A stretch of DNA of 64,000 nt from Squalus acanthias (taxonomy: Eukaryota). Position numbers and translations under genes: made by a program. How positions within the stretch are numbered: the first letter of the stretch is position 1; the number at the start of each line of letters is the position of its first letter. The stretch is from assembly GCA_030390025.1 (NCBI GenBank), contig CM059431.1:127474001-127538000 (forward strand), given 5' to 3'. Positions 3,312-49,700 of this stretch are shown one piece after another. The notes beneath the pieces are model-generated. The model was not told the DNA's origin. It saw nothing but the letters and a program-made list of their open reading frames with translations, and searched no databases.

Positions 3312-3313
3312 CG

Positions 3314-4846: not shown

Positions 4847-5099
4847 AAATTAAATAAATCTGTTGAACTATAACCTGGTGTTGTGCGACTTCTCATTTTT
4901 GCCTTCTATGAGATAGCCAGTTACTTATCCAATCGGCCAAATTTCCCTCTATCCCACAATTCCTTACTTTCTTCATGCGATATAGTTCAGCTCTCTGTCG
5001 GAATAGGACCTGCACACAATCTCCATTACAGGGATAGTACTGCTAGTGGCAGTCAGGGCCACCACAGCCCTGAACTCTTATGCCTTTGATTCATTACAA

Positions 5100-7524: not shown

Positions 7525-7692
7525 TACCCACTCCAGACCCTTGAGCACATAATCTTGTCTGACACTTTAGTGCAGTACTGAGGGAGTGCTGCACTGTCAC
7601 CAGTGTCTTCTTTCAGATGAGACATCTGGCCTCTCGGCTGGTTGTAAAAGGTCCCATGGCACTATTCAAATAAGATCAGCAGCGTTCTCCCC
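7525..7692 (+). mobile_element. Deu-domain SINE fragment
   Basis: tgcagtactgagggagtgctgcactgtc and cccatggcactatt, matching the fuller copy at 37285-37750. Confidence 0.75.
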
Positions 7693-8450: not shown

Positions 8451-9297
8451 GGCCCAGAAATTCGCCTCTCCGGCTTGCCGCGGGGGTAAGGATTGCGCGC
8501 GCACTTACCTACCGCGCCTGCCGTTGTGTTTTGGGCCCACGGGAACTTCAGCTCCTGGTCCTGCTCCAAGAGCCGGCGCGCAATGCGTGCGTGTCCCAGG
8601 GGTGCAGTTAGTGCGATGCGTCCCCTGGGATCATGTGGGCCATGGAGAGCCAATGGCAGCAGACCATCTTTCATTCATAGATTTGACAGGAGACCTGTCA
8701 AATCTGTGAATTGAAATCGGCCCCAAAAGAACAGCTAAACTTAAAATAATTTTTTTAAAAAACCAGCACATTTATAAAATAACTATAGTTAAATAAATTA
8801 ACCACTTTAAAAAAAAAAATTGAAAAAATTAAAATACTTTTTAAAAGTGATAAAAATAAACTTACCTTTCTTTAAAGTATCTAACAAAGATAAACCTGTT
8901 GAAAATTTTTTTAAATTATACTTAATTAACCACTTACCTTGTTGAAAACGGGTCCTGCGCCTTCTTTTTATAATGATGCGGACGAAGGAGCAGCGCTCCG
9001 AAAGCTTGTGATTTCAAATAAAACTGTTGGACTATAACCTGGTGTTGTGCGACTTCTCCTTTTTATAAGCGTAGTTTCTTCAATACTTACCCTCCCGTAG
9101 AAACCTGAAAAAAAATCTAAGTTTGCTGCGTGCGCGCAGCCTCTACCGCGCACGCGGTTCACCTAGGAACCGCCCCCTTCACCATACCGGAAGGTTTCCC
9201 GCGCATGCGCAGTGCATGCAGGAAACAGGCACTTCAGGACGCTTTACGGGTGAGTACGGACTGTGTACTCACCCGGGAAGGGCCGAATTTTTGGCCC
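8451..9297. mobile_element. Non-autonomous TIR element (Harbinger-type MITE)
   Basis: Termini GGCCCAGAAATTCG / CGAATTTTTGGCCC; internal blocks shared with 58629-59931. Confidence 0.6.
8974..9058 (+). mobile_element. Penelope terminal fragment with a degenerate hammerhead motif
   Basis: Matches 4815-4895; TSD CTTTTTATAA at 8964-8973 and 9059-9068. Confidence 0.8.
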
Positions 9298-9359
9298 AAT
9301 TGTTTGTAAGGAATGGTGCATGTTTTTTGAAAAGTGAATCTGTGCTGTGATACTTTAAG

Positions 9360-9600
9360 AAATGGCTGAACATGCGAGAGAGCGAGCACTAAGTATTTCT
9401 GATAATGCACTAGAAGCCTTGGTGCAAGAGATGGAAAGAAGGAGAGATGCCTGTACCCACAGGGGGACAATAGGCTGTCCAGACAGATGCTCAGGAAGCA
9501 GTGGGAAGAAGTAACGGCGGGGGTCAATGCCAGGAGTGTTGCTCCAAGAACATGGATGCAGTGCAGGAAGAAGTTTAACAATCTCACACGAGTTGTCAAG
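9360..9600 (+). pseudogene. Degenerate Harbinger Myb/SANT-like exon 1
   Basis: WEEVTAGVNARSVAPRTWMQCRKKFNNLTRVVK followed by a GT donor at the same position as in the other copies. Confidence 0.7.
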
Positions 9601-27369: not shown

Positions 27370-27664
27370 GCCTTAATCTAATTTTAAGATTGTGCCCCAT
27401 TATTCTGGATTCCCCCCTTCACCACTGAGGAAACAGCTTCTGGTATCTACCCTATCGAATCCCTTTAAACACCTCCATTAGATCATTCCTAAAACTTTTA
27501 AACTCAAGTGAATACAAGCCAAGTTTATGCAATGTGTCCTTATAATTTAAGCCCCAGCATCATTCTGGTAAATCTGCGCTATACCCCCTCCAATATATCC
27601 TTCCTGAGGTGCGGTGCCCAGAACTGAATTTAGTACTCCAGATCGAGTCTAACCAAGGCTGTGT
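27370..27664 (-). mobile_element. CR1 fragment hosting the provirus; continues at 37133-~37285
   Basis: Joining the flanks restores ...ctaaccaaggctGTGTacaac..., similar to the CR1 at 940-960. Confidence 0.75.
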
Positions 27665-29357
27665 TGTAAGGGATTCTGACCCTGCGTGTCTCGCAGCCTG
27701 TGAGATTCACGCGGCTCTGTGCAGCCTGTATGTCAGTGCGGGTCTAGGCCTTGTTGCCTGTTCTGGTCTCCAGCCAGTCTGGGAACACTAGACACACCTG
27801 TGAGTGGTTCGAATCACTCTCCCTTACGGTTCTAGACACTGGACTTAGATGCGAGAGCAGTAATGGAGATGAAACTCATGTAGACTCGGTTTGAATGGTA
27901 CGAAATGGAAAATCTTTATTGCATGATACTTAAGATTATGAAATACATGTCATAAGCACAGATTAATGACAGTACAATCTTACAAACAGTTATATAGTCG
28001 ATCTTAGGGAAACGAGGAACAAACGGCACAAAGTAAATAGGGGCACACATTACAAATATCCTTAATCCTTAAACCCTCCCCTATCAATATCTATCCTAAA
28101 CTAGATTCGTAGGATTTCGAGACTCATGCTCACCACTCGTGATAACTCGGAGAAATTCCGAATAGCTGATCGGATGTTTTTCACCGCAGCACCCACGTGT
28201 CGGTCAGGAGATCTCCTGGTCCCACTTGTTTACTTGCTTCTGCTGCTCCGGCTAGCAGGCTGGACCGTCTGCTGTGATGAAGACCTGTGTTGGTTGGTTT
28301 AACAGGTACTTTTCGAGCACAGTTGTCAATATCGTCGATACGATATGGCTTTCACATTCCAGTTACTTTGGGCACAGTCCAGTTATCATCGATGCAATAT
28401 GTTTCGTTATAAGTTCGAAGAAGTCTTCCTGGCGAGGAAAACTTGGATAATCGACCTACAGGCGCGGTCGGGATTTACTGACCGTGGCGATGGATATGGT
28501 CTTCCTCTCTTCTCATCTCATCTCATCTCATCTCATCTCATCTCGGGCCTTCGGTTCCGCTGCCAGTTACCAACATAGGTCTTCGTTACGCGACACGAGG
28601 TAGATCCGAACGGATCAGAAAGTTCAACAGTCTTTTCAGAAGAGGCAACAGGCAAGCAGGAGCGAGCCCAACTACGAGTACACAGGAGCAGCCACGAGGT
28701 TACGAAATAAGAGCACAGGATAAGAGAGAGCTGGACGGTTTGGAGCCTGCAATTATAGTGCAAAATCTTCCGTTTCCCGCCCAACTATAATGTCCATTCT
28801 TTTGTTTAGGGTTTGGCGCTCAAATGTCTTGTATGGGTGATCTCCGTTCTTAATGGGTTTCGGGGCTACTCGTAAATGTCTGAGTACCTGTTAATATTTC
28901 TCCCATTGTTAAATCGGTCGGTGTTCTCCCTGGAGGGGTTTGGGGCTTCCAAGTGTCCTGTATAACTACCTGCTAACGGCTCTCTCATCGTAGAGTCGTT
29001 GGGATTTTACATATTAATGTCTTTTGGATGGGCCCTTGATTACTCGGTACAATGGCTTTCCTTTGTACCTGGGAGACCGATTTCAGTATCTATGTGTATA
29101 CTGCAAACCCATAATGTCTCGTGTATTATCTTCACTGTGCTGAATCTTAATCGATCTTGCACAAATGTTTATTGGAACGCCATCTTGTCTGCCTGTTGAA
29201 AAGTCTAGAATGTTCTGTCACGAGGTGCGGCGGCCATTTTACAGGCTGCTTGTGTCCACTTTAAACCTGCCAGCATTCTACTGAAATAAAAGCTGTTTCA
29301 CGAAACTTTGTGTTTTTCTCCTTATTATTAAAATCGCGATATATTGCGAATTCTACA
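27665..29357 (-). repeat. 3' LTR
   Basis: Direct repeat of 35436-37128; sense AATAAA at ~27916-27921; internal (CATCT)n at ~28511-28544. Confidence 0.97.
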
Positions 29358-29369
29358 GTCCCTCCTGTT
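29358..29369 (-). promoter_or_regulatory. Polypurine tract
   Basis: Sense AACAGGAGGGAC abuts the TGTAG start of the 3' LTR. Confidence 0.8.
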
Positions 29370-29807
29370 GATGCGAATAACTCCGCTTATCGTATCAAAA
29401 ATCATAGTGGTGAGCAATATTATCTCGATTTCTCTCCGAATCCAGTAAATTAATCCCATAATTTTAACTTAGCTAGGGTCTCTGTGTCGTCCTCATTTCC
29501 CAAGAAAATTACATTTTATATCACCGTAGGCATTATTTGCCCTTAAACTTACACCACTTGTTTTCCTTCCCGGCGTAACCAGGCCGATGCCTCTCGTATC
29601 ACCTGTATATTCGTCTTTTATTCAGGGAAAGGAAAAAGAAAACCCAAAACCAAACAATCATTTTTAACTATAACACCATCACCAAAATAATCAACACCAA
29701 CTCTTAAAACATGTCGAGTTCCCAACGTATTTACAATCTCTGAAAATCTTATATGAGTACAGGCTTCCGCGGCGCACGTGGCGAGCGGGAGTGACGCCAT
29801 TTTCCGA

Positions 29808-32159
29808 TTACACGGTGCTCTCATCGTGCACGCGCACGTAACGTTCTCGCCACTCTCCCGTGTTTTCATGCTTGGTGAGGCGTTTGTCTCTTTTACAATG
29901 TACAACCAATAGGTACACTACAATGAAAACTTGGCATACGACTAAAATGTGGGAGGCTATTCTGATCCATGAAGGTACTTCAATATTGGTGAACAGATTC
30001 CACCACGGTGGAACTACTATATCCAGAATGTCTGTTCCTATTTCGACAGTTTTCTGCTCTAATGTATAAAAATGTTTCTGTGACACCGCGACGGCTTTCA
30101 AAAGCTTGGTGAGGTGTTCAGGGAGAGGGGGAATGAGGTATCCAAAATGCGCGACGAATCGCTGCAAGTCGGTGAAATTCTCTTTTACTGTGAGATGAAC
30201 AGTGGATGGTTCAGGGATTGGGATAATTCGCTGTTGTGCTACTTGAACTTCCGCCCTGGGTTTAAAACAGAAACTGCTGTCACTCACCGGACACCGGCTA
30301 CGGTTTCCATGCTGGTAGTGTTGCGCTGCAGTGGTAACACAATATGTTCCACCCCGATGTATGCTACCTGCGGAGGCACATGATCTTGTGCCATTGCCTC
30401 CATGGTGCAATTCATGGACTTGGCGCCAGCCGTTCTGAACCCGCACTGTGGTGTTAAAAAAGGCATTCAAGTGCTGGGGGCACAGTATTATGTGTGCTCC
30501 CCTGCCACGACAACCAGAGAGATCTGTACCTGTCATCGTTTGCTCCCAGCGGATGACGTAAGGTGGAACCGCTGCGTAACGAATGTGGGCTCCCCCCTGA
30601 ATGACACCAATGTTCTCTACCCGATACACCGGGGCGGGCTTTGCTGTGTCGCCCAAAACCGGCATGCGTAAAACTATACCCATAATAGTATGGTTTGAAC
30701 GTCCGCAGTCCACGGGGACTGGGTAAGCTTCTGAAGCTAGCCTGAGCTGGCACGGACTTAATGCGTTCTGAAAAGGGTGGAGCGCCCGCAGGTGTTTGTT
30801 ACTTATCCAGGACGGAACCAAACCTTGTTTTAAATCCTCCAAATTACTGCGGCCCTCGCCCAGTAACCACGCCCCGTAAAGCACGCACACCTCGTTCTGC
30901 GCAGCTTGATCGGATGCATTCCGATCTTCCCTAATCAGGGCATTTACCGTTTTTGCATGTTTCTCCAGCTCTGCTATAATTTCCTTTAAATGGAGAGTCA
31001 TGGCTTGGTCCTCGTGTAAACCCGACCCTACCACTTTATTCTCATCTGTTAGAATGTCTTTTAATTGTGTCTTTAAACCATTAATCTGGGTCTGCAGCTC
31101 CACACTGTCTAGAGCGTTGACCACAGATGTACCTGTGTTAAAAGCAGTGAACGCATCGTTCACCAAACCCCTTCTTTGCCTCCCTACTTGATCCAAAACT
31201 TCCTGTGGTGCGGTGTACAAACTTGTTTTATCAATTTCCGCGAAATCGAATTCGTAAAATTGTCTGAACATCTTGGTCAACAGGACCTGATACAACTGTT
31301 CCGTCTTTTTGGGGCACCACTCTGGTAACCGCACCTCAGTGAGATTTAAAATCACCGAGGCCACCGCGTAATGTACCCCCTGAAATAGTATCTGGTCTGT
31401 GGGGACCAGTACCAAACCATTCCCGGGTCCCTTCCTAGTTTTAGGGCACCCTTCTTCCTCAGCTAGAACCACCGGAATCGTGGGCGGGGCTTTGCGTGGG
31501 CGCGTAATGAGCTCAGTGGCATTTACTGGGATCGGGGAGAATGGGGCTCCGCACCCCCTGGTGCTCGCATCCCACCTCATCCCCTGTCCGTTATCCTGCC
31601 ATTGATTAATAAAAAATATGGAGATGCCTTTGGGGCAAACGTACTTTGACCCCCACATACATACATAAATTCCCTCATCCGGTTCCCACCATTTGTCCCA
31701 ACAGACTTTCACTTGTCCGTCTGTCCCCGTAATTGTCCGATGGGTATTATTACCCAGTCGTTCCCACTCGACCGAAGAGTTCCTCATAGTTTTGCTCAGC
31801 TTTCGCAGCCACCACCATCGGCTCAATGGGACCTTCCCACTACAAGTCAAACAAATCCGTTTGCCGACGGTGACGCTGATCCTGGGTGCGATGATCCTTA
31901 CTTTGGGGCACAGTAAAGAAGTCTCTTTGTAGGCAAACCCCGATGTGCTGGAATACTCCGTTGAGTTCGTTCCCAGCCATCCTGGCCACCTTCCCTTGTG
32001 GAAATAGGTGCTGGTCTCCTCTGCCTCCCGTCTTCCGGTCCCATCCACCGCGATGGGGGCCGTGTCCCCGGAACATCCAAACACCACGACATCCTTGGTG
32101 CGGCCTCGATAGGCCAATCCACATCCGATTGCCACGAGCAATACTAGAATTCGTTCCAT
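29808..32159 (-). CDS. env: Envelope glycoprotein (783 aa): signal peptide, Ig-like domain, furin site, class I fusion subunit, TM
   Basis: MERILVLLVAIGCGLA signal; RQRR|GLVNDAFTAF cleavage site and fusion peptide at 31170-31181, then a heptad repeat; DLSGC...CPQ Cys-rich region; TM IASHILVVCQVFIVVYLLVV; several N-x-S/T sites. Confidence 0.88.
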   Translation of the reverse strand: MERILVLLVAIGCGLAYRGRTKDVVVFGCSGDTAPIAVDGTGRREAEETSTYFHKGRWPGWLGTNSTEYSSTSGFAYKETSLLCPKVRIIAPRISVTVGKRICLTCSGKVPLSRWWWLRKLSKTMRNSSVEWERLGNNTHRTITGTDGQVKVCWDKWWEPDEGIYVCMWGSKYVCPKGISIFFINQWQDNGQGMRWDASTRGCGAPFSPIPVNATELITRPRKAPPTIPVVLAEEEGCPKTRKGPGNGLVLVPTDQILFQGVHYAVASVILNLTEVRLPEWCPKKTEQLYQVLLTKMFRQFYEFDFAEIDKTSLYTAPQEVLDQVGRQRRGLVNDAFTAFNTGTSVVNALDSVELQTQINGLKTQLKDILTDENKVVGSGLHEDQAMTLHLKEIIAELEKHAKTVNALIREDRNASDQAAQNEVCVLYGAWLLGEGRSNLEDLKQGLVPSWISNKHLRALHPFQNALSPCQLRLASEAYPVPVDCGRSNHTIMGIVLRMPVLGDTAKPAPVYRVENIGVIQGGAHIRYAAVPPYVIRWEQTMTGTDLSGCRGRGAHIILCPQHLNAFFNTTVRVQNGWRQVHELHHGGNGTRSCASAGSIHRGGTYCVTTAAQHYQHGNRSRCPVSDSSFCFKPRAEVQVAQQRIIPIPEPSTVHLTVKENFTDLQRFVAHFGYLIPPLPEHLTKLLKAVAVSQKHFYTLEQKTVEIGTDILDIVVPPWWNLFTNIEVPSWIRIASHILVVCQVFIVVYLLVVHCKRDKRLTKHENTGEWRERYVRVHDESTV

Positions 32160-32364
32160 CTTTCCTTGGTTCCTGTGATCAGATAGAATGAGGTAGCCAG
32201 CCTCGCAAGAGTCTCTGGCTTTTGTGAAGGGTGAGCGGGTCCCCTGACCTCGCCTCACGTAAACTTCAACGTTCGCTGAATAAACTTCAACTAAACCTAT
32301 CTTTAAAGCTCCCATCATTTTATCGTTTTCTGTTAAAAACACTACAAACTTAACCTTAATAAAG

Positions 32365-32452
32365 CTTAAAACTTAACCTTGAACTATAAACTTAAAACTT
32401 AACCTTGAACTATAAACTTAAAACTTAACCTTGAACTATAAACTTAAAACTT
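32365..32452. repeat. About 3.3 copies of a 26-bp tandem unit between ORF2 and env
   Basis: AAAACTTAACCTTGAACTATAAACTT repeated. Confidence 0.9.
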
Positions 32453-32497
32453 ATTACTACTTACTATACAGTGCCGCCCGTTCTCAGGGCGGCCCCT

Positions 32498-33619
32498 TTA
32501 AATTCTGAGAAGGCTGCTGCGAGCTCTTCCCGACGGTGGGAGGGCACTGACCCTTCCCTCTGATCTGCCGCAGCCTGTTACTGCTGCGATGTGGCCGGTC
32601 TGTATCTGGGTTATCTTAACCTTAAATTTTCGCCTTGGGGCAGTCTGGGGACATGACCACATCCTCCTGGGCTGGGGTTCTCTACTTGACCTACGGGGAG
32701 TTGCTATGGGCGGGGTTTCCGTGACGGACGGACCGGGTTCCGAGACTTCCATCGGGATGACCTGGGGTTCCATCACAGTCGCTGGCTCCGCCTCCGCTGA
32801 CTCCGCCTCCCTAACCTCGGGGCTGGCAGTTCGTGGCTCCGCCCTGCTCGGCCCAGCAGGCGGCCCTTCACTCGTGATCTCTGCCTCCCCCGAGGACTGG
32901 ACGTTCAAAGCGGGCGGCCACATCTCTGGGAGCCACACCGGTACTCTCTGTGCTCCCATAGCGGCTGGCCCTGCCTCCTCTAGCTCCTCCCTCCTGTCTT
33001 CGAGACCTGCAGCTCGTGTGTCCACCCTGTGTGGATCTCTACCTGCAGCCCCCGTCCCCTCCATATCGTAAAAGGGACCGTTCCTCCGAAACCACCCGTC
33101 GTCATCACTATCCTCATCTGCACTATCCTCATCTGACCCGGGTACCCTGAATTCTTCCTCATCTAACCCCCAATTCCAGAAAAACGCTGCATGATCGTCC
33201 GGGATGTCCCTTCCCCTGATGCAAGCTGCTATGCCTGCCTGTGTGCCTTGTGGTCCTACCTGGGGCTGTGCTTTCCCACTGGCGGGATTTACCCCTGTAG
33301 TTTTCCCTTGCGCACCTGGCTTGTACAGTTTGCACTGGTTTGCATCCTCATACTCCCGGCTTTTGGCTACCCTGTAGGCTGCTTTTATCTCTCTAAGCTG
33401 CGCTTCTAGCCTGAGCACGTCTAACTTTCCCATTGATCGGGCGTTCTCCTCCCGCAGGGCCTGCTCTCTAAGCTGCCCTTCCAGCCCATCTATTTTCCCT
33501 ATTAAGCGGGCGTTCTCCTCCCGCAAGGCCTGCTCTTTTAACCTGGCCTCCTCACCGCAGACCCCCTCCTGTGCGTGTCTTTTAAAAGGACACAGGTAGG
33601 CAGGCTGCGTGGGCTCTAG
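32498..33619 (-). CDS. ORF2 in the pol position, in frame after the gag stop; gag-derived coiled coil plus an acidic/Pro-rich region
   Basis: Frame is open from 33619 (LEPTQPAYLCPFKRH...) to the stop at 32498; no enzyme motifs. Confidence 0.75.
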   Translation of the reverse strand, partial: LEPTQPAYLCPFKRHAQEGVCGEEARLKEQALREENARLIGKIDGLEGQLREQALREENARSMGKLDVLRLEAQLREIKAAYRVAKSREYEDANQCKLYKPGAQGKTTGVNPASGKAQPQVGPQGTQAGIAACIRGRDIPDDHAAFFWNWGLDEEEFRVPGSDEDSADEDSDDDGWFRRNGPFYDMEGTGAAGRDPHRVDTRAAGLEDRREELEEAGPAAMGAQRVPVWLPEMWPPALNVQSSGEAEITSEGPPAGPSRAEPRTASPEVREAESAEAEPATVMEPQVIPMEVSEPGPSVTETPPIATPRRSSREPQPRRMWSCPQTAPRRKFKVKITQIQTGHIAAVTGCGRSEGRVSALPPSGRARSSLLRI

Positions 33620-35431
33620 TCATTGGGTACTATTAGACGGTCCTGCGACACCTACGGGGCCGGTTGCGACCGCCACCTGTCCACGCGCATTCAAGACCAG
33701 CTTGCGCATGGCTCCTAACACTGCTTCGAGGTCGTCAGGAGGGGTGGGTGCCTTGGCTTCCTTAGCCGGGACAGGCGCCTGGGCTCGGACCGCGGGATTT
33801 TTATCCTTGGAATCCTTCCAAGGGTTCCTGCAATGCTTGCGCCAGTGCCCTGTCTTCCCACACCCGTAACAAGCATTACTTGCCTGTGGGACGCGATTAC
33901 CCTCCTGATGCCACTCTCTTTGATACGGGGCTGCGGGTCGTACCTCATGTACTCTTCCCTTAAGGGGACGTGTTGCCATACCCCTTATATTGCGATAACC
34001 TAACGTGAGTCGATTCAAGACCGACTCTTCCGTAATGTTGGGGTCATTGGGATCAAACCATGCTTTTGTCTGCTCTCTGACGGCTGGTAAACTGTTGGCT
34101 ATTATGCACCTAAGCCAATGAGTTAAAGCTAAACCTTCCACATCTTCGCGCTCGGGCGCACCTAGACAGCTGCGCTCATATACTGGCCACAGCCTGTCGG
34201 CAAAAACCTTCGGGGGTTCTCCCTCCATCTGCACTGTCTGTCCCACTCTAGCAAACGGACCTTCGTCGTTCGCCCCCAACACTTCCAGGACCTCATTCTT
34301 TAATTCCTCATAACTCTTGGTTCCCCTCTTGCTCTCGCCTGAGAGACACTGAAGGACCGAGCTGTCTAATGAGAACAGCAGCATTTTTGCTGTTTCCCCA
34401 TCATCGCAGCCGTTAATGGCTGCGGCTTGCTCAACTTCTCTGAAATGTACGGAAGGGTCGTCTGCCTCGGTCAGCTTCCGTACGTGATTTATCATAGCTC
34501 TCAGCTGATGTGAACTGTGAGGCAACACCAGCTGTCCGAGGAGATCCCCCGGTTCTTCCCCACCGTTTCTGCTTGGGCCCCTTTTAATACCCGTTACTGG
34601 ATATAACGATCCCTTTCCTACTTCTTTTTCAATGGGCTCTTTTGTTTCTTCCATTGCTTCCTCCCTAACCCAGGTTTCTGAATAGCTGGGTGGCGCGGAG
34701 GGCGCAGTGACTACTACTCCTTCTGCTTTACTTGGTGGGGATTTTCTAAATCTCTCATTTACTAGCGGCTGGTGTGCCGACGGATTGATAAGGCACACCA
34801 TGCCGTTCGCATTGTTCACGGCCTTTTTGAGGTGCTCTATCTCCCTTTGGCAGGCGCTATGATCGGCTCCCTGAAACTTATCCTCAAGGGCCAACTTATA
34901 TGCCGCCCTAACCCCCGTCAAGCTCTCTTCTTGAGTTCTTATCTGGGCAGCTTGGCGGTTACATCTTTCCTTTAACCTGCTCTCATTCAATTTTGCCTCA
35001 GTGACCTGGCACTCGAGATAATCTATCCTTGTTTTAAGGTGACTGGAGACTTCCTGGCTTTCTTGGTGTAACTCATTTAAATTCTTAATGAGCACCTCCC
35101 CTCCAGAAACCTTCTCCTCCATTTCTCCCTCTAAATGACTGATTCGAGCTACTAGCGCTGTAATGGTCTGGTTTGAAATCTGAACCTGCCTTTTGTAACA
35201 CATAAGCCAGACTGCTTTCTCAAGTGTCTTTCTATGTTCTTTACTATCTGTCCACCTTTCAGCTGCCTCTAGTGGGCTCTTATCCGCTAACAATTCACTT
35301 ATCCATTTCTTAGTTAGATTAACCTTTCCAAACACATAATCCGCTATCTTTTCCTGCATAACATTTCGTACAGTCATTCCAAAATCTAACACACTACCCT
35401 CTCGCTGCCAGTGTCCTGCCGCGGTCGCCAT
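33620..35431 (-). CDS. gag: Gag (603 aa) with a coiled coil, capsid-like region and CCHC zinc knuckle
   Basis: CYGCGKTGHWRKHC; QMEGEPPKVFADRL capsid/MHR-like motif; ATG 5 nt after the 5' LTR. Confidence 0.92.
   Translation of the reverse strand: MATAAGHWQREGSVLDFGMTVRNVMQEKIADYVFGKVNLTKKWISELLADKSPLEAAERWTDSKEHRKTLEKAVWLMCYKRQVQISNQTITALVARISHLEGEMEEKVSGGEVLIKNLNELHQESQEVSSHLKTRIDYLECQVTEAKLNESRLKERCNRQAAQIRTQEESLTGVRAAYKLALEDKFQGADHSACQREIEHLKKAVNNANGMVCLINPSAHQPLVNERFRKSPPSKAEGVVVTAPSAPPSYSETWVREEAMEETKEPIEKEVGKGSLYPVTGIKRGPSRNGGEEPGDLLGQLVLPHSSHQLRAMINHVRKLTEADDPSVHFREVEQAAAINGCDDGETAKMLLFSLDSSVLQCLSGESKRGTKSYEELKNEVLEVLGANDEGPFARVGQTVQMEGEPPKVFADRLWPVYERSCLGAPEREDVEGLALTHWLRCIIANSLPAVREQTKAWFDPNDPNITEESVLNRLTLGYRNIRGMATRPLKGRVHEVRPAAPYQREWHQEGNRVPQASNACYGCGKTGHWRKHCRNPWKDSKDKNPAVRAQAPVPAKEAKAPTPPDDLEAVLGAMRKLVLNARGQVAVATGPVGVAGPSNSTQ
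35414..35430 (-). promoter_or_regulatory. Primer-binding site, tRNA-Ser-like, overlapping the gag ATG
   Basis: TGGCGACCGCGGCAGGA 5 nt after the LTR; resembles the complement of tRNA-Ser 3' ends (TGGCG....GGCAGGA). Confidence 0.65.
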
Positions 35432-35435
35432 TTTC

Positions 35436-37128
35436 TGTAAGGGATTCTGACCCTGCGTGTCTCGCAGCCTGTGAGATTCACGCGGCTCTGTGCAGCCTGT
35501 ATGTCAGTGCGGGTCTAGGCCTTGTTGCCTGTTCTGGTCTCCAGCCAGTCTGGGAACACTAGACACACCTGTGAGTGGTTCGAATCGCTCTCCCTTACGG
35601 TTCTAGACACTGGACTTAGATGCGAGAGCAGTAATGGAGATGAAACTCATGTAGACTCGGTTTGAATGGTACGAAATGGAAAATCTTTATTGCATGATAC
35701 TTAAGATTATGAAATACATGTCATAAGCACAGATTAATGACAGTACAATCTTACAAACAGTTATATAGTCGATCTTAGGGAAACGAGGAACAAACGGCAC
35801 AAAGTAAATAGGGGCACACATTACAAATATCCTTAATCCTTAAACCCTCCCCTATCAATATCTATCCTAAACTAGATTCGTAGGATTTCGAGACTCATGC
35901 TCACCACTCGTGATAACTCGGAGAAATTCCGAATAGCTGATCGGATGTTTTTCACCGCAGCACCCACGTGTCGGTCAGGAGATCTCCTGGTCCCACTTGT
36001 TTACTTGCTTCTGCTGCTCCGGCTAGCAGGCTGGACCGTCTGCTGTGATGAAGACCTGTGTTGGTTGGTTTAACAGGTACTTTTCGAGCACAGTTGTCAA
36101 TATCGTCGATACGATATGGCTTTCACATTCCAGTTACTTTGGGCACAGTCCAGTTATCATCGATGCAATATGTTTCGTTATAAGTTCGAAGAAGTCTTCC
36201 TGGCGAGGAAAACTTGGATAATCGACCTACAGGTGCGGTCGGGATTTACTGACCGTGGCGATGGATATGGTCTTCCTCTCTTCTCATCTCATCTCATCTC
36301 ATCTCATCTCATCTCGGGCCTTCGGTTCCGCTGCCAGTTACCAACATAGGTCTTCGTTACGCGACACGAGGTAGATCCGAACGGATCAGAAAGTTCAACA
36401 GTCTTTTCAGAAGAGGCAACAGGCAAGCAGGAGCGAGCCCAACTACGAGTACACAGGAGCAGCCACGAGGTTACGAAATAAGAGCACAGGATAAGAGAGA
36501 GCTGGACGGTTTGGAGCCTGCAATTATAGTGCAAAATCTTCCGTTTCCCGCCCAACTATAATGTCCATTCTTTTGTTTAGGGTTTGGCGCTCAAATGTCT
36601 TGTATGGGTGATCTCCGTTCTTAATGGGTTTCGGGGCTACTCGTAAATGTCTGAGTACCTGTTAATATTTCTCCCATTGTTAAATCGGTCGGTGTTCTCC
36701 CTGGAGGGGTTTGGGGCTTCCAAGTGTCCTGTATAACTACCTGCTAACGGCTCTCTCATCGTAGAGTCGTTGGGATTTTACATATTAATGTCTTTTGGAT
36801 GGGCCCTTGATTACTCGGTACAATGGCTTTCCGTTGTACCTGGGAGACCGATTTCAGTATCTATGTGTATACTGCAAACCCATAATGTCTCGTGTATTAT
36901 CTTCACTGTGCTGAATCTTAATCGATCTTGCACAAATGTTTATTGGAACGCCATCTTGTCTGCCTGTTGAAAAGTCTAGAATGTTCTGTCACGAGGTGCG
37001 GCGGCCATTTTACAGGCTGCTTGTGTCCACTTTAAACCTGCCAGCATTCTACTGAAATAAAAGCTGTTTCACGAAACTTTGTGTTTTTCTCCTTATTATT
37101 AAAATCGCGATATATTGCGAATTCTACA
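35436..37128 (-). repeat. 5' LTR
   Basis: Differs from the 3' LTR at 35587, 36234 and 36833 (by eye). Confidence 0.97.
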
Positions 37129-37284
37129 GTGTACAACTTTTGTAACCCAACCCCCTTGAGATAAATGCCAACATTCCATTAGCCTTTTTGATTACTCTTT
37201 GTACCTCTTCATTAGCTTTTAGCCATTTTTGTACCTGAACACCCAAATCTCTTTGCTCCTCCAGTTTATATTCTCTCGCCATTT

Positions 37285-39272: not shown

Positions 39273-40893
39273 TGTAGAGTTTCGCAATTATCGCGATTCA
39301 AAATAACATGAGAGAAGCAGTTTCAATTGATCATTTTTATTAAACAAAATGCTGACGTGGTAATAAAGGACACAGAAGCCTGTAAAATGGCCACCGTGCA
39401 TCGTGGCAGAAGCTTCCAGAGACACAGTGGGCAGACAAGATGGCATCGAATATACATTCAGTATGAGATCGGATGATACTCGGTACACATTGAAAAGGCA
39501 GGATGCAACCCGTTTGCATCCTGAACAATAGCAATGATATAAGTGCTGGAATTGTTTCCTACGCACAGTAAGGATCATTGAACTGGGCCATCGAGAACCC
39601 ATCTAGACACATCAATACACAAATACCCCCCCCGGCTCAACAATGAGAGAGACATTGGCGGGTGATTAAGCCAGTATTCGGGGGGCCCCAAAACCAGTCG
39701 AGGAGACGATTCATACACATCCTGGCTGGCTCAACATAGGAGAAGGTATTAACGGATAGTTGGCCAGTTTCAGGTGTTATCGAAACCCGTTAAGAAGATA
39801 ATCGCCCCATGCTGGGAGTTTTGGGCGCCAAAATCACACAAAGAATAAACGTTTAGATTTGAGCGGGAGATAAGGCCGACAAAACAGTATAACTATAGAG
39901 GACAAATGTCCATCGGTCTCTTGACTCTTGACTCTTGGCTCTGGACTCTTGACTCTCTTCCTGAAGCTCTTCCTGGACTCTTCCTTGACCCTTGGCTCTT
40001 GACTCTTAGCCGTGCTGGTCGATTATTCGAGTGTTGGGTGGAGCTCAATCGGAACGAGCCGCCTCGACAGGGCAAGTAACAGGGTACATCATCCCGAGTG
40101 TCGGTAAACGATGTCCGGACCCGGAGCCCCGAGTGACGAGAAGAAAGATGAGAAGAAAGACGAGAAGAAATTCCACGTGCCGTCACGGTCAGTAAACCCC
40201 GACTGCGCCCGAAGATATAATGACAGAATCCATCTTTGAATTCTACAGACTACGACATGAACCGTTTTCTTTGAATTCTACGGATTACTGCACGATCCGG
40301 TCTGAATCCATCGACCACTTCATGACATCAGGGAATCTGGCTTACCTTTCGCGGGAGCGAGAGTAAACAAGTGGGGTGCAGAAACCCTTACAAACACGTG
40401 ACAGTCAGGCGCTGCAGCAAAACGAGCTGAGTGCCTCACTTTAAATTTCCGAAGTGAGCCGAGTGGTGAGCATGTTTTCCGATCCTACAAATCCAGACGT
40501 AGTTTAGGTATATTAAGGGAGGGTGGTTTTTCTAAGGTTAATGTATAATGTGTTCCCCCTTTTACGATGTGTCGTGTGTTCCCCATTTCCATAGGCCAAG
40601 TTTTATGAACGTGTGTATACTTGTAGTCTCTTTGATCTGCGCCTATGACATGTATTTCATGATTTTAGACGCCATGCAATAAAGATATTCAGTTTGTGCT
40701 ATTCAACCGGGTCTATTTGAGTCTTTCTCTACATTACTGCTCCTTGCATCTAAGTCCAGGTGTCAGAACCGTAAGGGCGAGTGGGTCGAACCACTCACAG
40801 GTGCTTATTGCAAAAGTCTGGGCTGGAGACCAGAGCAAGCAATAGTATAGGCAACGAAGGCCTCACCTCGCACCAGTACCGTGACCCCTTACA
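39273..40893 (+). mobile_element. Solo LTR related to the provirus LTR, inserted in opposite orientation within the second element's LTR
   Basis: Begins TGTAGAGTTTCGCAATTATCGCGAT and ends CCCTTACA, like the sense provirus LTR; flanks AAAG / GAAG; AATAAA at ~40679. Confidence 0.85.
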
Positions 40894-41489: not shown

Positions 41490-42437
41490 CTAAACCCTGT
41501 TCGGGCTCTGCCTTTTGCTGCTTCTGGGCAGCCGGTAAGGTGGCCTGTACCGCAGGATCCTGAGAGTCCTTCTTCTACAGCATACTGACCCCTTTGGTGT
41601 GGCTGCTTCTGAGTCCCTGTCCTGTCCTGTGGGTTCCTCGCAGCCTGAGACCGTAGGCTGGGGACCCTTCTTGTGTTCTTGGCTCACAGCTGCCTCTGTG
41701 AAACCCTCTCTGCAGGAGGCTGTAGGCTGGAGATCCCTGTCCTCAGACTGATCCCTGACCTTGGGTGTTTCTTTACGGGTTACAACCCTCTTTGGGTGGG
41801 ACCCTTTAAACTGATACACTGGAGACCAGGGTGGTTTAGGCTGTGGTGTGCGGGGAGACCTTCTTAGGACTCTGGCCACTGGGGGAGTGCCTGAGTCCCA
41901 CATAATCGATGGAGTATACCCTTCTGTGATACAAGCCCCTGTCCTCACCGCTGCAGTCTGTGAGTCTGCCACAGCTGCTGGCTGGGGATTTCTATCCTCA
42001 GGCTGTACCTCTTCTAAACCTGTCTCGGGGGCAGGTAACTCTCTGCAGCCTAATGCTGTTGCTCTTGCTGCAGGCTGAGGATTTCTATCCTGTTTTAGTT
42101 TGGGCAACTCTGCTACCATGGCTTGCAACTGCGGGGTGGTGAATTCCCCCGGGGTTGTTAAGCAAACCATCCCTCTGGCTTTGGATAGGGCTTGGGTCAG
42201 ACCTTTTATCCTTTCCTCACAGGGCCCATGGTTTAAATACTAATACCCCCTGCTCCTGGCTACCCTGTAGGCTGCCTTTATGTCTCTAAGCTGCCCCTCT
42301 AACCCGTCTACTTTACCCGTTAAGCAGGCGTTCTCCTCCCGTAAGGCCTGCTCATTTAAACTGGCCTCCTTACGGGAGGTCTTTTCCTGTGCGTGTCTTT
42401 CAAGGGGACACAGGTAGACAGGCTGCGCTGGTTCTAG
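41490..42437 (-). pseudogene. ORF2 homologue of element 2, one premature TAG at 42240-42242
   Basis: LEPAQPVYLCPLERHAQ...EQALREENA...IKAAYRVA...GMVCL, in frame after TGA-CTAG. Confidence 0.8.
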
Positions 42438-42715
42438 TCATAGGTCTGGGTTGTATTGGGCAGATGGGGTCAGAGCACCGGTGGTTGCTGCTACCTTCCC
42501 TGGGCCAGTCAATAGGGTCTTCATGGCGTCCAAAAATGACTTGACCGTGGCGGGAGGGATCCCTGTCTCTGCCTTTTGGGCTGGGGTTGAGGAATTCTTA
42601 CCCTTGTTATCTTTCCAAGGATTCTTAAACTCCTTCCTCCAGTGTCCATCCTTCTCACACCCATAACAGTTAAGCTTTGTGCTGGAAGGGTTATTCCCTT
42701 CCTGATGCCACGTAA
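42438..42715 (-). pseudogene. gag: gag C-terminal remnant of element 2
   Basis: WHQEGN...CYGCEKDGHWRKEFKNPWKD aligns with the first element's gag. Confidence 0.85.
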
Positions 42716-43439
42716 CTTCTAACTTTTCAAGTGTAAGTCTAGAAATTGGTGTCAATCTAAAGCCTTCTGCTGACAGCAATTGTTCAGTAGGGCACAGCAA
42801 TTTCCGCGGTTAATGGCTCTTATATGCTTTGTACCCATTGGGGAGAAATTGGTTATGGGCCATTTTTGGGTGTGAGCTTAGCAGCCTGTGTACAGCTGGG
42901 ACCAGAAGCCTGAGGCCTGAGAGGCCTGAGGCTTGTCCCAAATAAAGGCCTTGGGCCTCGTCGGACTAATTCCGGCAAGCTTCAGATGTCAATCAGGGAT
43001 CCAGAGGCAGCTTGCCGGTTTGCAGCAGATCAACTTGCTCCACCCTGGTCCGCATCAAGACAAATTAAAAGCAAAAACTTCAAATTTGGCTGACAACCTC
43101 CAGCTGTCCCTTTCAGGGCATCTGGCTAGGCTGCAGACAAATTTCACAGCGGAGTCGTGAAACAAGTGCTAGGCCCCTCATTAGCATATGCAAGAGTCTT
43201 AATGCTGTTTCAGATGGCCACGCGGGACATCTCAATATTGCCTGATTGCCAATACGGCATCAGATTTACTTCAGCATTTGTCGTTCGTGCCTGGGAGACA
43301 GCACTGCAAAATTGGTGCTATTTGCCCCCATTAAGTCACTGTAAAACAGGCACAATGTGGTCCAATTTCTTCCCCATTGTTTCTAATTGATGCAAGCCTT
43401 TACAGTGGGTGTTGTGCTCTCCTGCCCAGACTATGTGAT

Positions 43440-44805
43440 TTCTTTTTTTAACTCATTCATGGGATGTGGGCGTCGCTGGAAAGGCCAGCATTTAATGCCC
43501 ATCCCTAATTGCCCTTAAGAAGGAGGTGGGGTACCGCCTTCTTGAATCGCTGCAGCCCGTGTGGTGAAGGTACTCCCACAGAGCTGTCAGGGAGGGAGTT
43601 CCATGACTTTGACCCGGTGACAATGAAGAAACGGTGATATATTTCCAAATCAGGATGGTGCGTGACTTGGAGGAACTTGCAGGTGGTGGTGTCCTCATGT
43701 GCCTGCTGCCCTTGTCCTTCTAGTTGGTAGAGCTCGCAGGTTTGGAAGGCGCTGTCCAAGGAGCCTTGGCGAGTTGCTGCAGTTCATTTTGTAAATGGAA
43801 TACACTCCAGCCACGGTGCGCCGGTGGTGGAGGGACTGAATGTTTAAGGTGGTGGATGGGGTGCCAGTCAAGTGGGCAGCTTTGTCCTGGATGGTCTTGA
43901 GTTCCTTGAGTGTTGTTGGAGCTGGCAAGTGGAGAGTATTCCATCATACTCCTGACTTGTGCCTTGTAGATGGTGGAAAGGCTTTGGGGAGTCAGGAGGT
44001 GACCTGCTCTTGTAGCCAGTATTTATGTGGCTGGTCCAGTCAAATTTCTGGTCGATGGTGACCACCAGGATGGTGGTGGTGGGGGATTCAGTGATGGTAA
44101 TCCCGTTGAATGTTAAGGGGACGTGGAAAGACTCTCTCTTGTTGGAGATGGATATTGCCTAGCACTCATGGAGCACAAATGTTACTTGCTACTTATCAGC
44201 CCAAGCCTGAATGTTGTCCAGGTCTTGCTGCATGCGGGCATGGACTGCTTCATTAACTGAGGAGTTGAAAATGGAACTGAACACTGCAATCATCAGCGAA
44301 CATCCTCACATCTGACCTTATGATGGAGGGAAGGCCATTGATGAAGCAGCTGAAGATTGTTGGGCCTAAAACATTGCCCTGAGCAATTCCTGCAGCGATG
44401 TCCTGGGGCTGAGATGATTAGCCTCCAACAACCAAAATCATCTCCCTTTGTGCTAGGTATGACTCCAGCCAGTGGAGAGTTTTCCCCCTGATTCCCATTG
44501 ATTTCAATTTTACTAGGGCTCCTTTTTGCCAGACTCGGTAAAATGCTGCCTTGATGTCAAGGGCAGTCACTCTCACCTCACCTCTGGAATTCAACGCTTT
44601 TGTCCATGTTTGGACCAAGGCTGTAATGAGGTCTGGAGCCGAGTGGTCTTGGCAGAACCCAAACTGAGCATCAGTGAGCAGGTTATTGGTGAGTAAGTGC
44701 CGCTTAATAGCACTGTCAACGACACCCTCCATCACTTTGCTGATGATTGAGTGTAGGCTGATGGGGCGGTAATTGGCTGGATTGGATTTTTCTTGCTTTC
44801 TAATC
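43440..44805 (-). mobile_element. CR1/L2-group LINE 3' half, decayed
   Basis: NYRPISL, DAQFGF and ALDIKAAF RT motifs; same family as 59945-60915. Confidence 0.85.
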
Positions 44806-45139
44806 ACCGAGTAATTGAAAACCAGCCATTATTGGCATTTAAGGAGGGAGCAAACAAAAATTGCAGTTTTTATTCATCACTCCTGCGATAACCCATATAA
44901 AATAGTGTTTGTTTTGGACAGGAATGGAAACTCTCAAGTACCTAGGCAATTGCACTGATCTTTTGAGAGCCTTGTGAGCACCAGTGAACTGTCATACAGG
45001 TGGGAGCTAACATGCTCCATACTGTCCACGATTGATCAGCCCTGCACTCTCTTAGAGTGCTTGGGGCTGCTATGTGCGTATTGCAGGTGTCATTGATGAC
45101 CATTCCCAGCCTTAGCCTTCAATGACCGCAGTATTGGCC

Positions 45140-46440: not shown

Positions 46441-46545
46441 TGAGGCAACGAGTAATGCAAGTCGTTCAAATTTAGGAAGAATTTCTTTTAACTTTCACAT
46501 GAGCATAGTGAATGGGATGCAGACAAAAGAGCTTTGGGACCCAGG

Positions 46546-46790
46546 GGGCTTGATTTTAACAGCCCTGAGGAGGCGGGTTTGGGCTTGATTTTAACAGCCC
46601 TGAGGAGGCGGGTTTGGGCTTGATTTTAACAGCCCTGAGGAGGCGGGTTTGGGCTTGATTTTAACAGCCCTGAGGAGGCGGGTTTGGGCTTGATTTTAAC
46701 AGCCCTGAGGAGGCGGGTTTGGGCTTGATTTTAACAGCCCTGAGGAGGCGGGTTCGGGCTTGATTTTAACAGCCCTGAGGAGGCGGGTTT
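46546..46790. repeat. Seven tandem copies of a 35-bp unit comprising the Harbinger terminus
   Basis: GGGCTTGATTTTAACAGCCCTGAGGAGGCGGGTTT x7, one substitution at 46755. Confidence 0.95.
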
Positions 46791-49700
46791 GGAGGCGGAT
46801 CAGCTGCTAAAATCGGAAAAAATGGCTTCAGAGAAACAACCCGCCTCCATCCCGCCCCACGCGATTTTCGTGAGTGTCTGTTCAGCTGCTCCCAAACTGA
46901 CCCGACTCCAACCGGAGGGACAGGTAGTTAAGGCAGTTAAGAGCCTGTTAACTCTCTTGATAATTCTATTTTAACAGAGGTTTCCCATTTTCGTGCCTCT
47001 GGCTCCTGTTTCCCGTCTTGTCAGAAACACGCCAGCTTCAAGGAGGCGAGTTGGTGGAGGACATAATCTGTAGTCATTATTGGTGCAGAACTTTAAAAGC
47101 GCTCCTGTAACATGGCTGGCATTCAAATGCAACAACTTTGTTGCTGGAGGTTTGGGATAAGATTTTGCAAATCTACTGACCTTGTGACTGGTCAAGCTGA
47201 CACACATCTGCTGTTTGAACTGATTGGGAATAATTTCAGGCCACTTTGAGTGTGCGCTTGCAAGCTTCTTGCCTCAACTGAAATCTATAACAACGGGATG
47301 GGAACCGTTTACATCCTCTCATCCTGGTCATCAGATTCGGAGGAAGAGCAGCGCGGCTTAGTGCTGCCGGATGAACAAGTGACTCAGCACACAGCCTCCT
47401 TGGAGGAAGATGAAGAGGACGAGGAAGAGGATGAGGAGGAGGACGTGGAGTGACGCCTTGCGGGGCCGGATGTGGCCAACCCAGCAGCAGGCGACCACAT
47501 TGCTGGTTGTCAGGCAAGGGATGCACTCATCCATGCCAGTTTCACATGAGCTTACACTTCAAACACAGGGGTGGCTGGCAGATGGAGATGAAAATAAGGT
47601 CAAGATTCTTCACACACCATACATCATCTGTCCAATAAATGGTGCTTTATGATCACTGTCACCGCCATCATTATAAATGGAATTAGCCCTGAGCCCTCAC
47701 TGTGCAACTTCCATTTCCCAAAACACATAGACCAGAACCTCAACTGCTTGCCATCACTTTTCTTTAATGACATCACAAAAGGAGGACACTCGATAATTTA
47801 CAGCACAATAACACACCCATGTGACTACCCTTGTGACTATTTATGTGTTAACTTCCTCTTACGCGTGCTTCTACGTGGTGCTTCCCCTGGGGCTTCAGCA
47901 GATGTAGAGGCACCTTGCTCACTTTGACGCTGCGCCTGCCTAGACGCCTTTGGCGGGCGTCCTCTGGGTTTGGGAGCCTGGGAGGGCTCCTCCACAGTCT
48001 GCTCTTCCTGCGGCTGTGCAGGGGCTGAGACGGCCATTTCAGTTTGGTGTGGAATCTGGGGCTCTGACCGAGGGCTCCGCAGTGGCATGGGAGTGTGAGC
48101 GCTTGGAGAGCAGCCCACACTTGCTTGTTGCCTGCCACCAACATCCCTCGCATGGGTCAGCCGCACTTCAATGCTAGCAAGTGGCTGGAGAGCACCTTGC
48201 TGCACGTCAGGAGGACCATGAGTATCGTCTCTGTACTGGCAGTCCTCATAAGAAGGACGTCCATGAAGCTCTAATGTCTCTCCTCAATAGATGCCCAACT
48301 CTCCTCCATTGCAGACAATCTATTTTGAAGAGTAACCATGTTTTCGTTAGTCTGGCGACTTATGACTTCCATGGCAGTTGCCACCCTCTTCATGGCGGAA
48401 TGGTCATGCGACATTGCCTCCACAAAGGCAGTGCTCATGTCAGAGATTGTCTCCTCCATTCTCTTCATACTCGCAGTTACCCTGGATGCAAACCCTGTCA
48501 GAGACTCCTGCACTTGTTCCTGGAGTTCCAGCACCGCTCTCTTTCTGGATGGCCCCAGAGGCACAGCGTCCACATGCAGCTGAGCAGAGCTAGGAGCGCC
48601 CTGCGACCTCTGACGAGGACTCTACACTGCTGTCGCTGATGCTCACTTGTGAACTGTGATACACCAGGTGACAACACTACTCTATCTCGCGAAGGCCCCG
48701 CCAAGGTGTGCATTGCTGCGCTGGTGCTGGGTGCGCTGGTGCTGGTGACGCTGCTCCCTCAGCGGCTGTAGGTTCCTCTGAGGAGTTGTCCAGCTCTTCC
48801 ACCTGGACAGTGGGGAGGGGGACTCTCGATGGTCCTGTGGGAGAGTAAAGGCATGAGTTAGACATCTGATTTTTAGGTAGCAGACACATCCTATTGTGCA
48901 GATGATCAGAAGTCAATCTCTATGAGCATCATATGCCATTGCAGTCAATCATGAATTGTAATTGCGAGGGATGAAAATGCATTCTGTCACCGGCTTCCTC
49001 AACTGCACCCATCTCTCCGCCCCCCACTTCCAGCTCCTCGCCACCTCCCACGATGTCGTGAGCAGCCTCCTCAGCGTTTGTTAGTGTGGCCAGGGATGGT
49101 GTGCTTCCTCCTGTCTTTGATCTCTCCCTCTTATTGTGGAATATCTTTACCTGCATGGAGGGACACAAGTGGAGTTTCAGCGAGAGTGATGGAGTGAGTG
49201 TGAAGAATCCAAAACCTAGAAGCTTAGAGGGAGACGAAGATGGAGTGAGGTGGCAAGAGGAAGCTGCCTCCCTGTGCGTTGTTAGTTGTTGTCATTGCAT
49301 AACAGTGAGAACAAGTTTGAGGGGTGCATAGTAGAATAGTGAAGTGATTCAGTACAGAGAGAGAGATAGAGAGGTAAGGGTGCAAGGGAAGTAAGGGTAA
49401 GGTGGGATTTGGAGGAGCAGGCTGACAATGCAGAGTGCTGGTGATGAGAAGAGTAGGGAAGCAGTTTGAAGGTAAGTGTGATGTGATACTCACTTTTGAT
49501 GTTCGCACAAGATCATTGAAGCGTTTTCTGCACTGTACCCAGGTGCATGTACATAGCGACCTTACGCTTACAACCTCAGCAATCTGCAGCCAGGCTGCCT
49601 TTGTCTGATGAGGAGGCTTCCTCCGGCCATCGGCAGGGAACAGAATCTCCCTGCGTCCTCTTACTCCCTGCACAAGAGCTTGCAGGGACTCCTCAGTGAA

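Follow-up and report, generated by a model that had tools for sequence, protein, structure and literature searches.

High-copy endogenous retrovirus (ERV) families usually lose env, and non-autonomous ERVs as a kind are already well known. Deletion forms of the mouse intracisternal A-particle (IAP) are mobilised in trans, and Friend spleen focus-forming virus (SFFV) with its murine leukaemia virus (MLV) helper is an example of a replication-defective, helper-dependent retroviral genome. The chicken EAV-HP insertion is without any pol, according to the available part of its description. Lokiretroviruses were found in none of six chondrichthyan genomes in the accessible text of Wang and Han 2020 (PMC7947760). 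BHIKHARI (Bik-1/Bik-2) of zebrafish is presented, in the portion of a preprint that was available (bioRxiv 10.1101/2024.03.25.586437), as a set of non-autonomous, gag-only lokiretrovirus relatives whose Gag is ~600 amino acids (aa) in length with an N-terminal coiled coil and a capsid (CA) domain. Described here is a provirus with gag and env and without pol from Squalus acanthias. It is located in a stretch of 64,000 nucleotides (assembly GCA_030390025.1, contig CM059431.1, positions 127,474,001 to 127,538,000 of the forward strand), which is referred to as the window and supplies the coordinates used below.

The provirus is very probably a recent insertion of a short, pol-deleted and non-autonomous subfamily (S, 9.46 kb) of a young and abundant ERV. 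S would depend on a full-length form (F) of the same family, would be co-packaged with it, and would spread by reinfection. New here are the retention of both gag and env, the exact in-frame swap with a piece of a second family, the high copy number at near-zero age, and the presence of a fusion-protein-type (F-type) envelope protein (Env) in an elasmobranch.

Short and full-length copies in the genome

The provirus occupies positions 27665–37128 (9,464 bp), and all of its long frames are on the minus strand. In the sense of the element, the 5’ long terminal repeat (LTR) is at 35436–37128 and the 3’ LTR is at 27665–29357. Each LTR is 1,693 bp in length with TG...CA ends, and the pair shows three mismatches and no insertions or deletions (indels). 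Comparison of the LTRs with their flanks places a 4-bp target site duplication (TSD), GTGT on the plus strand, at 27661–27664 (left copy) and 37129–37132 (right copy). The primer binding site (PBS; 35413–35430, minus strand) overlaps the first gag ATG and can base-pair at each of its 18 positions with the 3’ end of tRNA-Arg(TCG) plus CCA, as given by a tRNA gene from the same genome. A polypurine-like tract (PPT), read from the sequence, adjoins the 3’ LTR at 29358–29371 (minus strand). Its core is AGGAGGGA, and in the sense direction it reads ...AACAGGAGGGAC.

The original prediction, made from the letters of the window, had listed the LTRs, the 4-bp TSD, the PBS, the PPT, and a 603-aa gag, and each of these was found again when the sequence was re-read. 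Its view that the insertion is young agrees with the three differences between the 1,693-bp LTRs. It had also reported the absence of protease (PR), reverse transcriptase (RT), RNase H (RH), and integrase (IN), which holds by two routes. A Pfam scan of the three open reading frames (ORFs) of the provirus found no PR, RT, RH, or IN domain, and comparison of a full-length pol with the window by blastn and tblastx matched only the first 36 nucleotides and the last ~880 nucleotides of pol.

The assembly is 3.7 Gb in size and contains at least 40 near-identical copies of the LTR (96–100%), with 3,454 first-look candidates. LTR pairs in the genome fall into two spacings, ~7.7–7.85 kb and ~11.13–11.18 kb. 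Eight short and six long copies were fetched; together with the window copy, these make up nine S and six F copies. All eight short copies align in collinear fashion to the full 9,464 bp of the window element, at 97.1–97.9% identity. Five of the long copies align to positions 1–3541 and 3788–9464 of the element and carry 3,621 bp between these two parts. The sixth (C1198) is rearranged, and its matches to these two parts are broken into several pieces. Outside the deletion, S and F are 97–99% identical; for the full-length relatives the value outside pol is 97–98%.

The F form has the layout LTR-gag-TGA-pol-env-LTR and is 12.8 kb in length. The pol of one full-length copy (L001) has 1,511 codons and lies directly behind the gag stop in the same frame. 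Its product matches the Pfam domains RVT_1 (5e-36), RT_RNaseH_2, RNase_H (2e-19), Integrase_H2C2, and rve, along with a weak RVP. The full-length Pol has a dual RNase H, with RT_RNaseH_2/RT_RNaseH at residues 470–602 and RNase_H at residues 650–793, a feature also seen in canonical retroviruses. Among the S copies, gag is open in eight of nine, the frame behind the gag stop is whole in eight of nine, and env is open in seven of nine. Among the F copies, gag is open in five of six, pol in three of six, and all three genes in two of six.

In place of 3,621 bp of the F pol (PR-RT-RH-IN), the short form carries a filler of 246 bp. The filler is present in all eight fetched short copies and absent from all six long copies. 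A further 20 loci, chosen by their filler, were compared over 1,246 bp, and all 20 are collinear across the short junction; it is thus found in 28 of 28 other short-form loci examined. With the filler as probe, the best 40 of 1,343 first-look candidates are all full-length matches of ~100% identity; with a pol probe, 40 of 40 scored places match at 99–100% identity. Contigs of two public runs (X1 and X11) bridge the junction between gag and filler, and contigs of three (X1, X2, and X11) continue from position 33341 into sequence equal to the pol of L001. The original prediction had proposed a search for copies of the same layout at different TSDs and for pol-bearing relatives with a matching PBS and LTRs. 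Both exist in this genome, the former as the 28 loci that share the junction and six different TSDs, the latter as the F copies, with pol open in three of six.

Deletion after insertion, or misassembly confined to this locus, was also weighed as the source of the pol-less layout, and its probability is negligible. Local deletion and misassembly are ruled out by the same junction at all 28 other loci and by the contigs of independent public runs.

Six simple short insertions with readable flanks, the window copy included, each have a different perfect 4-bp TSD. A seventh short insertion is a tandem dimer with a single TSD. All four non-tandem F copies also have a TSD. Divergence between the two LTRs of a copy is 0–0.18% in S (n = 9) and 0.12–0.64% in F (n = 5). 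The window element had been predicted to be pol-less before it integrated, and the identical junction in eight of eight whole copies and 20 of 20 further loci, together with the different TSDs of the six simple insertions, supports this.

Multiplication of the short form chiefly at the DNA level, by segmental or tandem duplication and unequal crossing-over and with no helper, is very improbable. It would fit the frequent tandem arrays (C3448, C3311, and C1604) and the four close pairs found per 40 hits of the gag probe and of the env probe. Against it, the six short copies lie on different contigs with different perfect 4-bp TSDs and unrelated flanks, and one copy has inserted into the gag of another. 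In addition, LTR divergence within a copy is 0–0.18%, compared with 2–3% between copies, and the copies are scattered across many chromosome-sized contigs.

Several other observations concern the arrangement of the copies. Tandem arrays of the form LTR-internal-LTR-internal-LTR are common in both S and F; one of them, C3448, has a single TSD (GATG) around the entire array. With the gag probe and with the env probe, ~8 of the 40 best hits lie in close pairs (four pairs each). Of the short copies L017 and L018, one has inserted into the gag of another family member, and one lies inside an older relative with a pol tail of 84–87% identity. One short copy (L040, C19:18433674-18435343) contains a 424-bp tandem duplication across the filler. 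Contigs over the whole internal region were obtained from the public runs X1, X2, X9, and X11 (four organism codes), with approximately one third at 99% identity or more. No splice joint was seen in the contigs of these four runs, for which the library type is unstated and depth is not readable as expression. Among 14 public runs listed, none is marked as RNA.

The tRNA-Arg(TCG) gene was identified in one unit of a tandem array (C26). A first tRNA pattern search returned four loci, none with a tRNA, and none was present in two sampled places (L047 and L048). The array is located at ~40.5–40.9 Mb of C26, has a period of ~1,623 bp and at least 90 units, and bears tRNA-Arg(TCG) genes, the primer of this family.

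The gag frame and the origin of the filler

The gag ORF (33620–35431, minus strand) is 603 aa in length and consists of a long N-terminal coiled coil and a helical CA-like region. It ends with TGA followed by CTAG. A zinc knuckle of the pattern CX2CX4HX4C is located at Gag residues 521–534 (33830–33871, minus strand), although the E value of Pfam zf-CCHC is only 0.29. The first ATG (35429–35431) lies within the PBS, 4 nucleotides behind the LTR. The true Gag start may instead be Met19 or Met25, and MATAAGHW, conserved at the N-terminus of Gag models, may be translated PBS. The predicted structure of Gag is poor, with a mean predicted local distance difference test (pLDDT) score of 47.6, and with this model Foldseek gave no fold match at E ≤ 0.001. 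The best of the weak rows are the capsids of Arc, MLV, PNMA2, and human immunodeficiency virus (HIV).

The sequence UGA-CUAG is a known readthrough-favouring context. The gag stop is TGA-CTAG in S, in F, and in a second, gag-only family (family B, described below), as well as in 20 of 20 further junction loci. The sequence TGACTAGA follows directly after gag in the same three groups and, again, in 20 of 20 junction loci. F evidently makes Gag-Pol through readthrough of this stop. In the window copy, the gag frame is open for 373 further codons past the stop, to position 32498, and readthrough in S would yield Gag joined to a coiled-coil-like piece of 82 residues and the Pol tail.

This open frame can be divided into three parts, all on the minus strand. 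The first ten codons (33588–33619) are common to S, F, and family B and are likely the site of a template switch. The filler (33342–33587) is 246 bp in length, in frame, and coiled-coil-like, with an internal duplication of ~70 bp. The remainder (32498–33341) is the 3’ remnant of pol, coding for the final ~295 residues of Pol, an Asp/Glu/Pro-rich tail behind the SH3-like domain of the integrase, and contains no Pfam domain.

An ORF of 311 aa, labelled ORF2 (32498–33433, minus strand), had been predicted as an ordered frame in the pol slot that is shared by a diverged neighbour. The frame is indeed open. Residues 19–311, however, correspond to residues 1206–1511 of the L001 Pol with 91% identity, and the ORF is read in the gag frame. 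On sequence grounds, ORF2 is a chimera of the filler and the C-terminal Pol tail and not an independent gene. Elsewhere in the full-length element as the source of the filler was ruled out, as no match was found there.

The neighbour in the window (41490–42809, minus strand) contains a Gag C-terminus with a CCHC knuckle and the same stop context. Its post-stop protein shares 53% identity with the beginning of the readthrough frame of S. This neighbour is not an older gag and env element; it belongs to family B. A whole copy of family B (L041) has the layout LTR-gag-ORFx-LTR, is ~5.9 kb in length, lacks pol and env, and has LTRs of 94.8% identity. ORFx is in the gag frame behind the TGA-CTAG stop. 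Family B has 2,361 first-look candidates in the genome, and its Gag is 43% identical to that of the provirus.

Past the ten shared codons (LEP.QP.YLCP), S reads like family B (…RHAQE…LREENA…), while F enters the protease, with the motif LLDTGAS ~45 codons past the gag stop. At the DNA level, the filler and the beginning of the family-B ORFx share ~79% identity, and gag is only ~65% identical to that of family B. Because of this difference, the donor of the filler would be a closer relative of family B and not family B as sampled.

A single origin of S is probable, in which reverse transcription changed template twice between co-packaged RNAs. One switch would have taken place in the ten conserved codons past the gag stop, onto the RNA of a family-B relative. 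The second, 246 nucleotides further on, would have returned to the F RNA near the end of the integrase. S retains the LTRs, the tRNA-Arg PBS, the PPT, and the 5’ region, together with gag, env, and the final ~295 pol codons. By itself, S cannot process Gag, reverse-transcribe, or integrate. The PR, RT, RNase H, and IN of F, as packaging partner, would copy and integrate S, and spread would proceed through Env-mediated reinfection.

The original prediction called the element satellite-like, which is overstated. S is a defective, non-autonomous derivative of its helper and not a strict satellite, because it is 97–99% identical to F and shares F polymorphisms.

Other features were noted in the window beside the provirus. 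An LTR-like fragment (39273–40842, plus strand) is 70–74% identical to parts of the provirus LTR, and its orientation is opposite to that of the adjoining family-B fragment. The translation of an ORF at 44418–44828 (minus strand) resembles, by eye only, a reverse transcriptase fragment of a non-LTR long interspersed nuclear element (LINE). A tandem repeat with a 35-bp unit is present at 46511–46827.

Envelope, shared variation, and selection

The env ORF (29808–32318, minus strand) encodes 836 aa when read from its first ATG; counted from the signal-peptide Met at 32159, the product is 783 aa. A furin-type RQRR is located at Env residues 327–330 (31170–31181, minus strand) and is followed by a hydrophobic, fusion-peptide-like sequence (GLVNDAFTAF...). 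Helices are found at residues 333–444, and a transmembrane (TM) helix is located at residues 734–755 (29895–29960, minus strand). There are 11 N-glycosylation sequons. In sequence, Env thus has the layout of an F-type protein, with a signal peptide, RQRR before a hydrophobic stretch (a predicted cleavage site), long helices, and a C-terminal TM helix.

An AlphaFold model was made for the family-normal Env of a sister copy (L014) with an alignment of 34 rows. The mean pLDDT is 55. Values are ~75–90 over most of residues 236–650, and the first 235 residues are unmodelled (pLDDT <50). In a Foldseek search with this model, all 40 listed rows (ranks 1–50) are paramyxovirus or pneumovirus F proteins, with E values of 1.8e-12 to 4.6e-07. 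The best match is human parainfluenza virus 3 (1ztm, E 1.8e-12), and respiratory syncytial virus, Newcastle disease virus, and henipaviruses are also present.

Sequence searches gave less. Pfam PF00523 (Fusion_gly) matched none of 34 Env relatives at E ≤ 0.1 and did not match the window Env at E ≤ 1. A phmmer search of the PDB with a single Env returned no match. The Env profile has a weak match to foamy-virus gp130 (E 0.016), and the language-model neighbours of Env cluster with the Gypsy/Baculo_F and Fusion_gly families, which is treated as a lead only. The gamma-type motifs CX6CC and CWLC are absent from the Env of the window copy and of L014. The earlier view that Env is F-like and not gamma-type holds at the level of the predicted fold.

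The env frame of the window copy is open, as was predicted for the 783-aa form, but 35 of its codons are read out of frame. Two indels, +1 and −1, lie ~105 nucleotides apart and set it off from all 14 other copies compared, so that Env residues 568–602 (30354–30458, minus strand) are misframed in this copy only. The misframed stretch eliminates two cysteines (CGF and NCT) that are conserved in distant homologues, which keep the family frame. At 30351 and 30456, contigs from four of four public runs show the family-normal sequence. With 35 conserved residues scrambled and the cysteines lost, the Env of the window copy is most likely non-functional. The claim that this copy makes its own envelope therefore fails, and the copy would be a dead end as far as Env is concerned.

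Shared variation was compared in nine S and six F copies, anchored on the window frames. Together, gag, the tail, and env contain 93 informative biallelic sites; S and F each carry both alleles at 73 of them, and one site is a fixed difference. In trees, S and F are mixed, with three label changes for gag and five for env, the latter no fewer than when labels are shuffled. Both S and F copies stand on each side of one env split, which is supported at 96%. In two loci (L028 and L032), which were selected by filler identity, the filler is 99.3–99.6% identical to that of the window, while the adjoining tail is ~90% identical and the end of gag 94–97% identical. This contrast indicates recombination onto diverged backbones.

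Summed pairwise ratios of nonsynonymous to synonymous change (dN/dS), a comparison that the original prediction had suggested, are 0.04–0.05 for env, 0.26–0.32 for gag, and 0.36–0.52 for the tail. Env is therefore under strong purifying selection. The values are similar within S, within F, and between S and F. By codon position (1/2/3), the variable sites of env number 15/5/54. Copies differ from one another by 1–3%, and the LTRs within a copy differ by 0–0.6%. Divergence between copies far exceeds that within copies; replicating genomes are therefore where most of the variation arose. Strong constraint on env suggests that spread is by reinfection, and S and F are read here as one co-packaged, recombining, and infection-driven population.

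Several points weigh against this reading. Mobilisation in trans, co-packaging, and readthrough are argued from sequence. The copies are few (nine S and six F) and were chosen as the best LTR matches to the window element. Two of the S rows come from one tandem array, and neither the age contrast nor the pairwise dN/dS sums are made of independent values. Most branches of the trees are weak, with 0 of 12 starred in gag and 2 of 12 in env. Copy numbers are lower bounds, and the first-look candidates of the 246-bp probes (filler, 1,343; pol, 1,832 and 1,250; gag, 1,415; env, 1,610) are not additive and give no S:F ratio. Family B as sampled, with 79% identity, is not itself the donor of the filler. 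Recombination between S and F also makes selection on the gag and env of S inseparable from selection on those of F, and because the two recombine, a need of S for its own gag and env is not deducible.

S might be more than a defective derivative. It is possible, though doubtful, that it is an adapted, defective-interfering (DI) or satellite-like retrovirus whose readthrough protein and shorter genome let it out-replicate its helper. The insert is in the gag frame and stop-free, the post-stop frame is whole in eight of nine S copies, and the frame is open over 259 codons in 17 of 20 further loci, some of which have flanks that are 7–10% diverged. Open frames at 1–3% divergence, however, are explicable by youth alone. 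The filler is near-invariant on diverged backbones, but this is biased, as the loci were selected on filler identity. The sampled LTR divergence is lower in S (0–0.18%, n = 9) than in F (0.12–0.64%, n = 5), in a sample that is small and non-random. The gag-only family B likewise has an in-frame ORF behind TGA-CTAG. The dN/dS of the tail is just 0.36–0.52 and is alike in S and F. The widest form of this proposal can be put forward only tentatively. A recently or currently infectious retrovirus with an F-type Env in cartilaginous fishes would have spawned an adapted recombinant parasite that retains the genes for capsid and envelope, has an in-frame coiled-coil module in place of every enzyme, makes a Gag readthrough fusion, hops between diverged helper backbones, and out-inserts its helper.

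The strong purifying selection on Env could also reflect co-option of the short-form gag, env, or both by the host, which would have kept the frames. Gag-only lokiretrovirus relatives have developmental roles in zebrafish, as stated in the accessible part of the source (bioRxiv 10.1101/2024.03.25.586437). The selection, however, is spread over many dispersed, near-identical, and very young copies and is shared with F rather than tied to a single orthologous locus, and the env of the window copy is scrambled. Co-option is regarded as highly unlikely.

Relatives and comparison with known systems

Among solved structures, the RT-RH region of F scores best with the RT of MLV and xenotropic MLV-related virus (XMRV) (2e-70; MLV 241 bits) and with the foamy-virus PR-RT (4e-64; 220 bits). 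Lower matches are Ty3 (1e-41; 146 bits) and HIV-2 (4e-16; 62 bits). The closest named relatives of Pol are anuran gene models called NYNRIN-like, with 40–44% identity. Relatives of Env and Gag are found in skate (76% and 50% identity) and in sawshark. Two public sawshark models (P0002 and P0003) fuse pieces of the Env family to host-like genes (Niban-1-like and ZFP2-like), and the skate model P0001 shows an Env that is gapped internally. All three models are probably ERV-derived mis-annotations. Membership of the family in the lokiretroviruses is not established. A literature search, with bioRxiv supplements outside its reach, found no report from cartilaginous fishes of an ERV with an F-type Env or of a pol-less family with gag and env; a paper on gamma-type Env from this search makes no mention of an F-type one.

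The genome contains, side by side, a full-length retrovirus and two dependants, one with gag and env and without pol, and the other with gag only. S and F are young (LTR divergence 0–0.6%), and their mode of replication is still legible in the sequence. Trans-complementation, recombination after co-packaging, and Env-dependent reinfection, which age usually blurs, become testable. Env has been kept and strongly constrained during amplification, even in the form without enzymes. The F-type fusion protein of retroviral elements is extended to an elasmobranch host, with the nearest relatives in skate and sawshark, and the host range of this Env is relevant to the dispute over where retroviral and lokiretroviral envelopes came from. 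Proteins of this family have already been mis-modelled as host genes in public gene sets.

As far as lokiretroviruses are described in the accessible text (PMC7947760), they and the present family both have gag-pol-env between LTRs and a dual RNase H. The lokiretrovirus Env likewise has a signal peptide, a furin-type site, a fusion peptide, a coiled coil, a TM helix, and a resemblance to the F protein of Mononegavirales. Some lokiretroviruses in that text also have coiled-coil (smc-like) additions, comparable to those of this family. Unlike the lokiretroviruses, this Env has no PF00523 sequence match, and the RT-RH scores best with MLV/XMRV and foamy virus among solved structures.

The layout of family B (LTR-gag-ORFx-LTR, L041) is of the BHIKHARI type as given in the available part of the preprint. 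S differs from BHIKHARI in that it keeps env, and its Gag has a CCHC knuckle where Bik-1 has a glycine-rich patch, a comparison made by description only and from that part of the source.

The likeness of Env to the F proteins of paramyxoviruses and pneumoviruses consists of the predicted fold, the furin-type site, the hydrophobic peptide, the long helix, and the C-terminal TM helix. Sequence identity to these proteins is 9–14%, and the N-terminal subunit, at ~330 aa, is far longer than F2. Baculovirus F, errantivirus Env, and foamy-virus gp130 are grouped here as similar Env systems.

Like EAV-HP and mouse ETn/MusD, S shares LTRs and cis signals with an autonomous partner, has its enzymes deleted, and is present as many independent insertions. 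Unlike these elements and the IAP deletion forms, S has a whole gag and env, and its deletion is exact, in frame, and refilled with 246 bp. It differs from them further in a pol remnant that is readable as a Gag readthrough fusion, in its F-type Env, and in its elasmobranch host. Like helper-dependent and DI retroviral genomes, S has no pol, keeps packaging and LTR signals, would depend on a helper, and recombines with it. Unlike genomes of the SFFV type, S is fixed in the germline in many copies and carries no captured oncogene.

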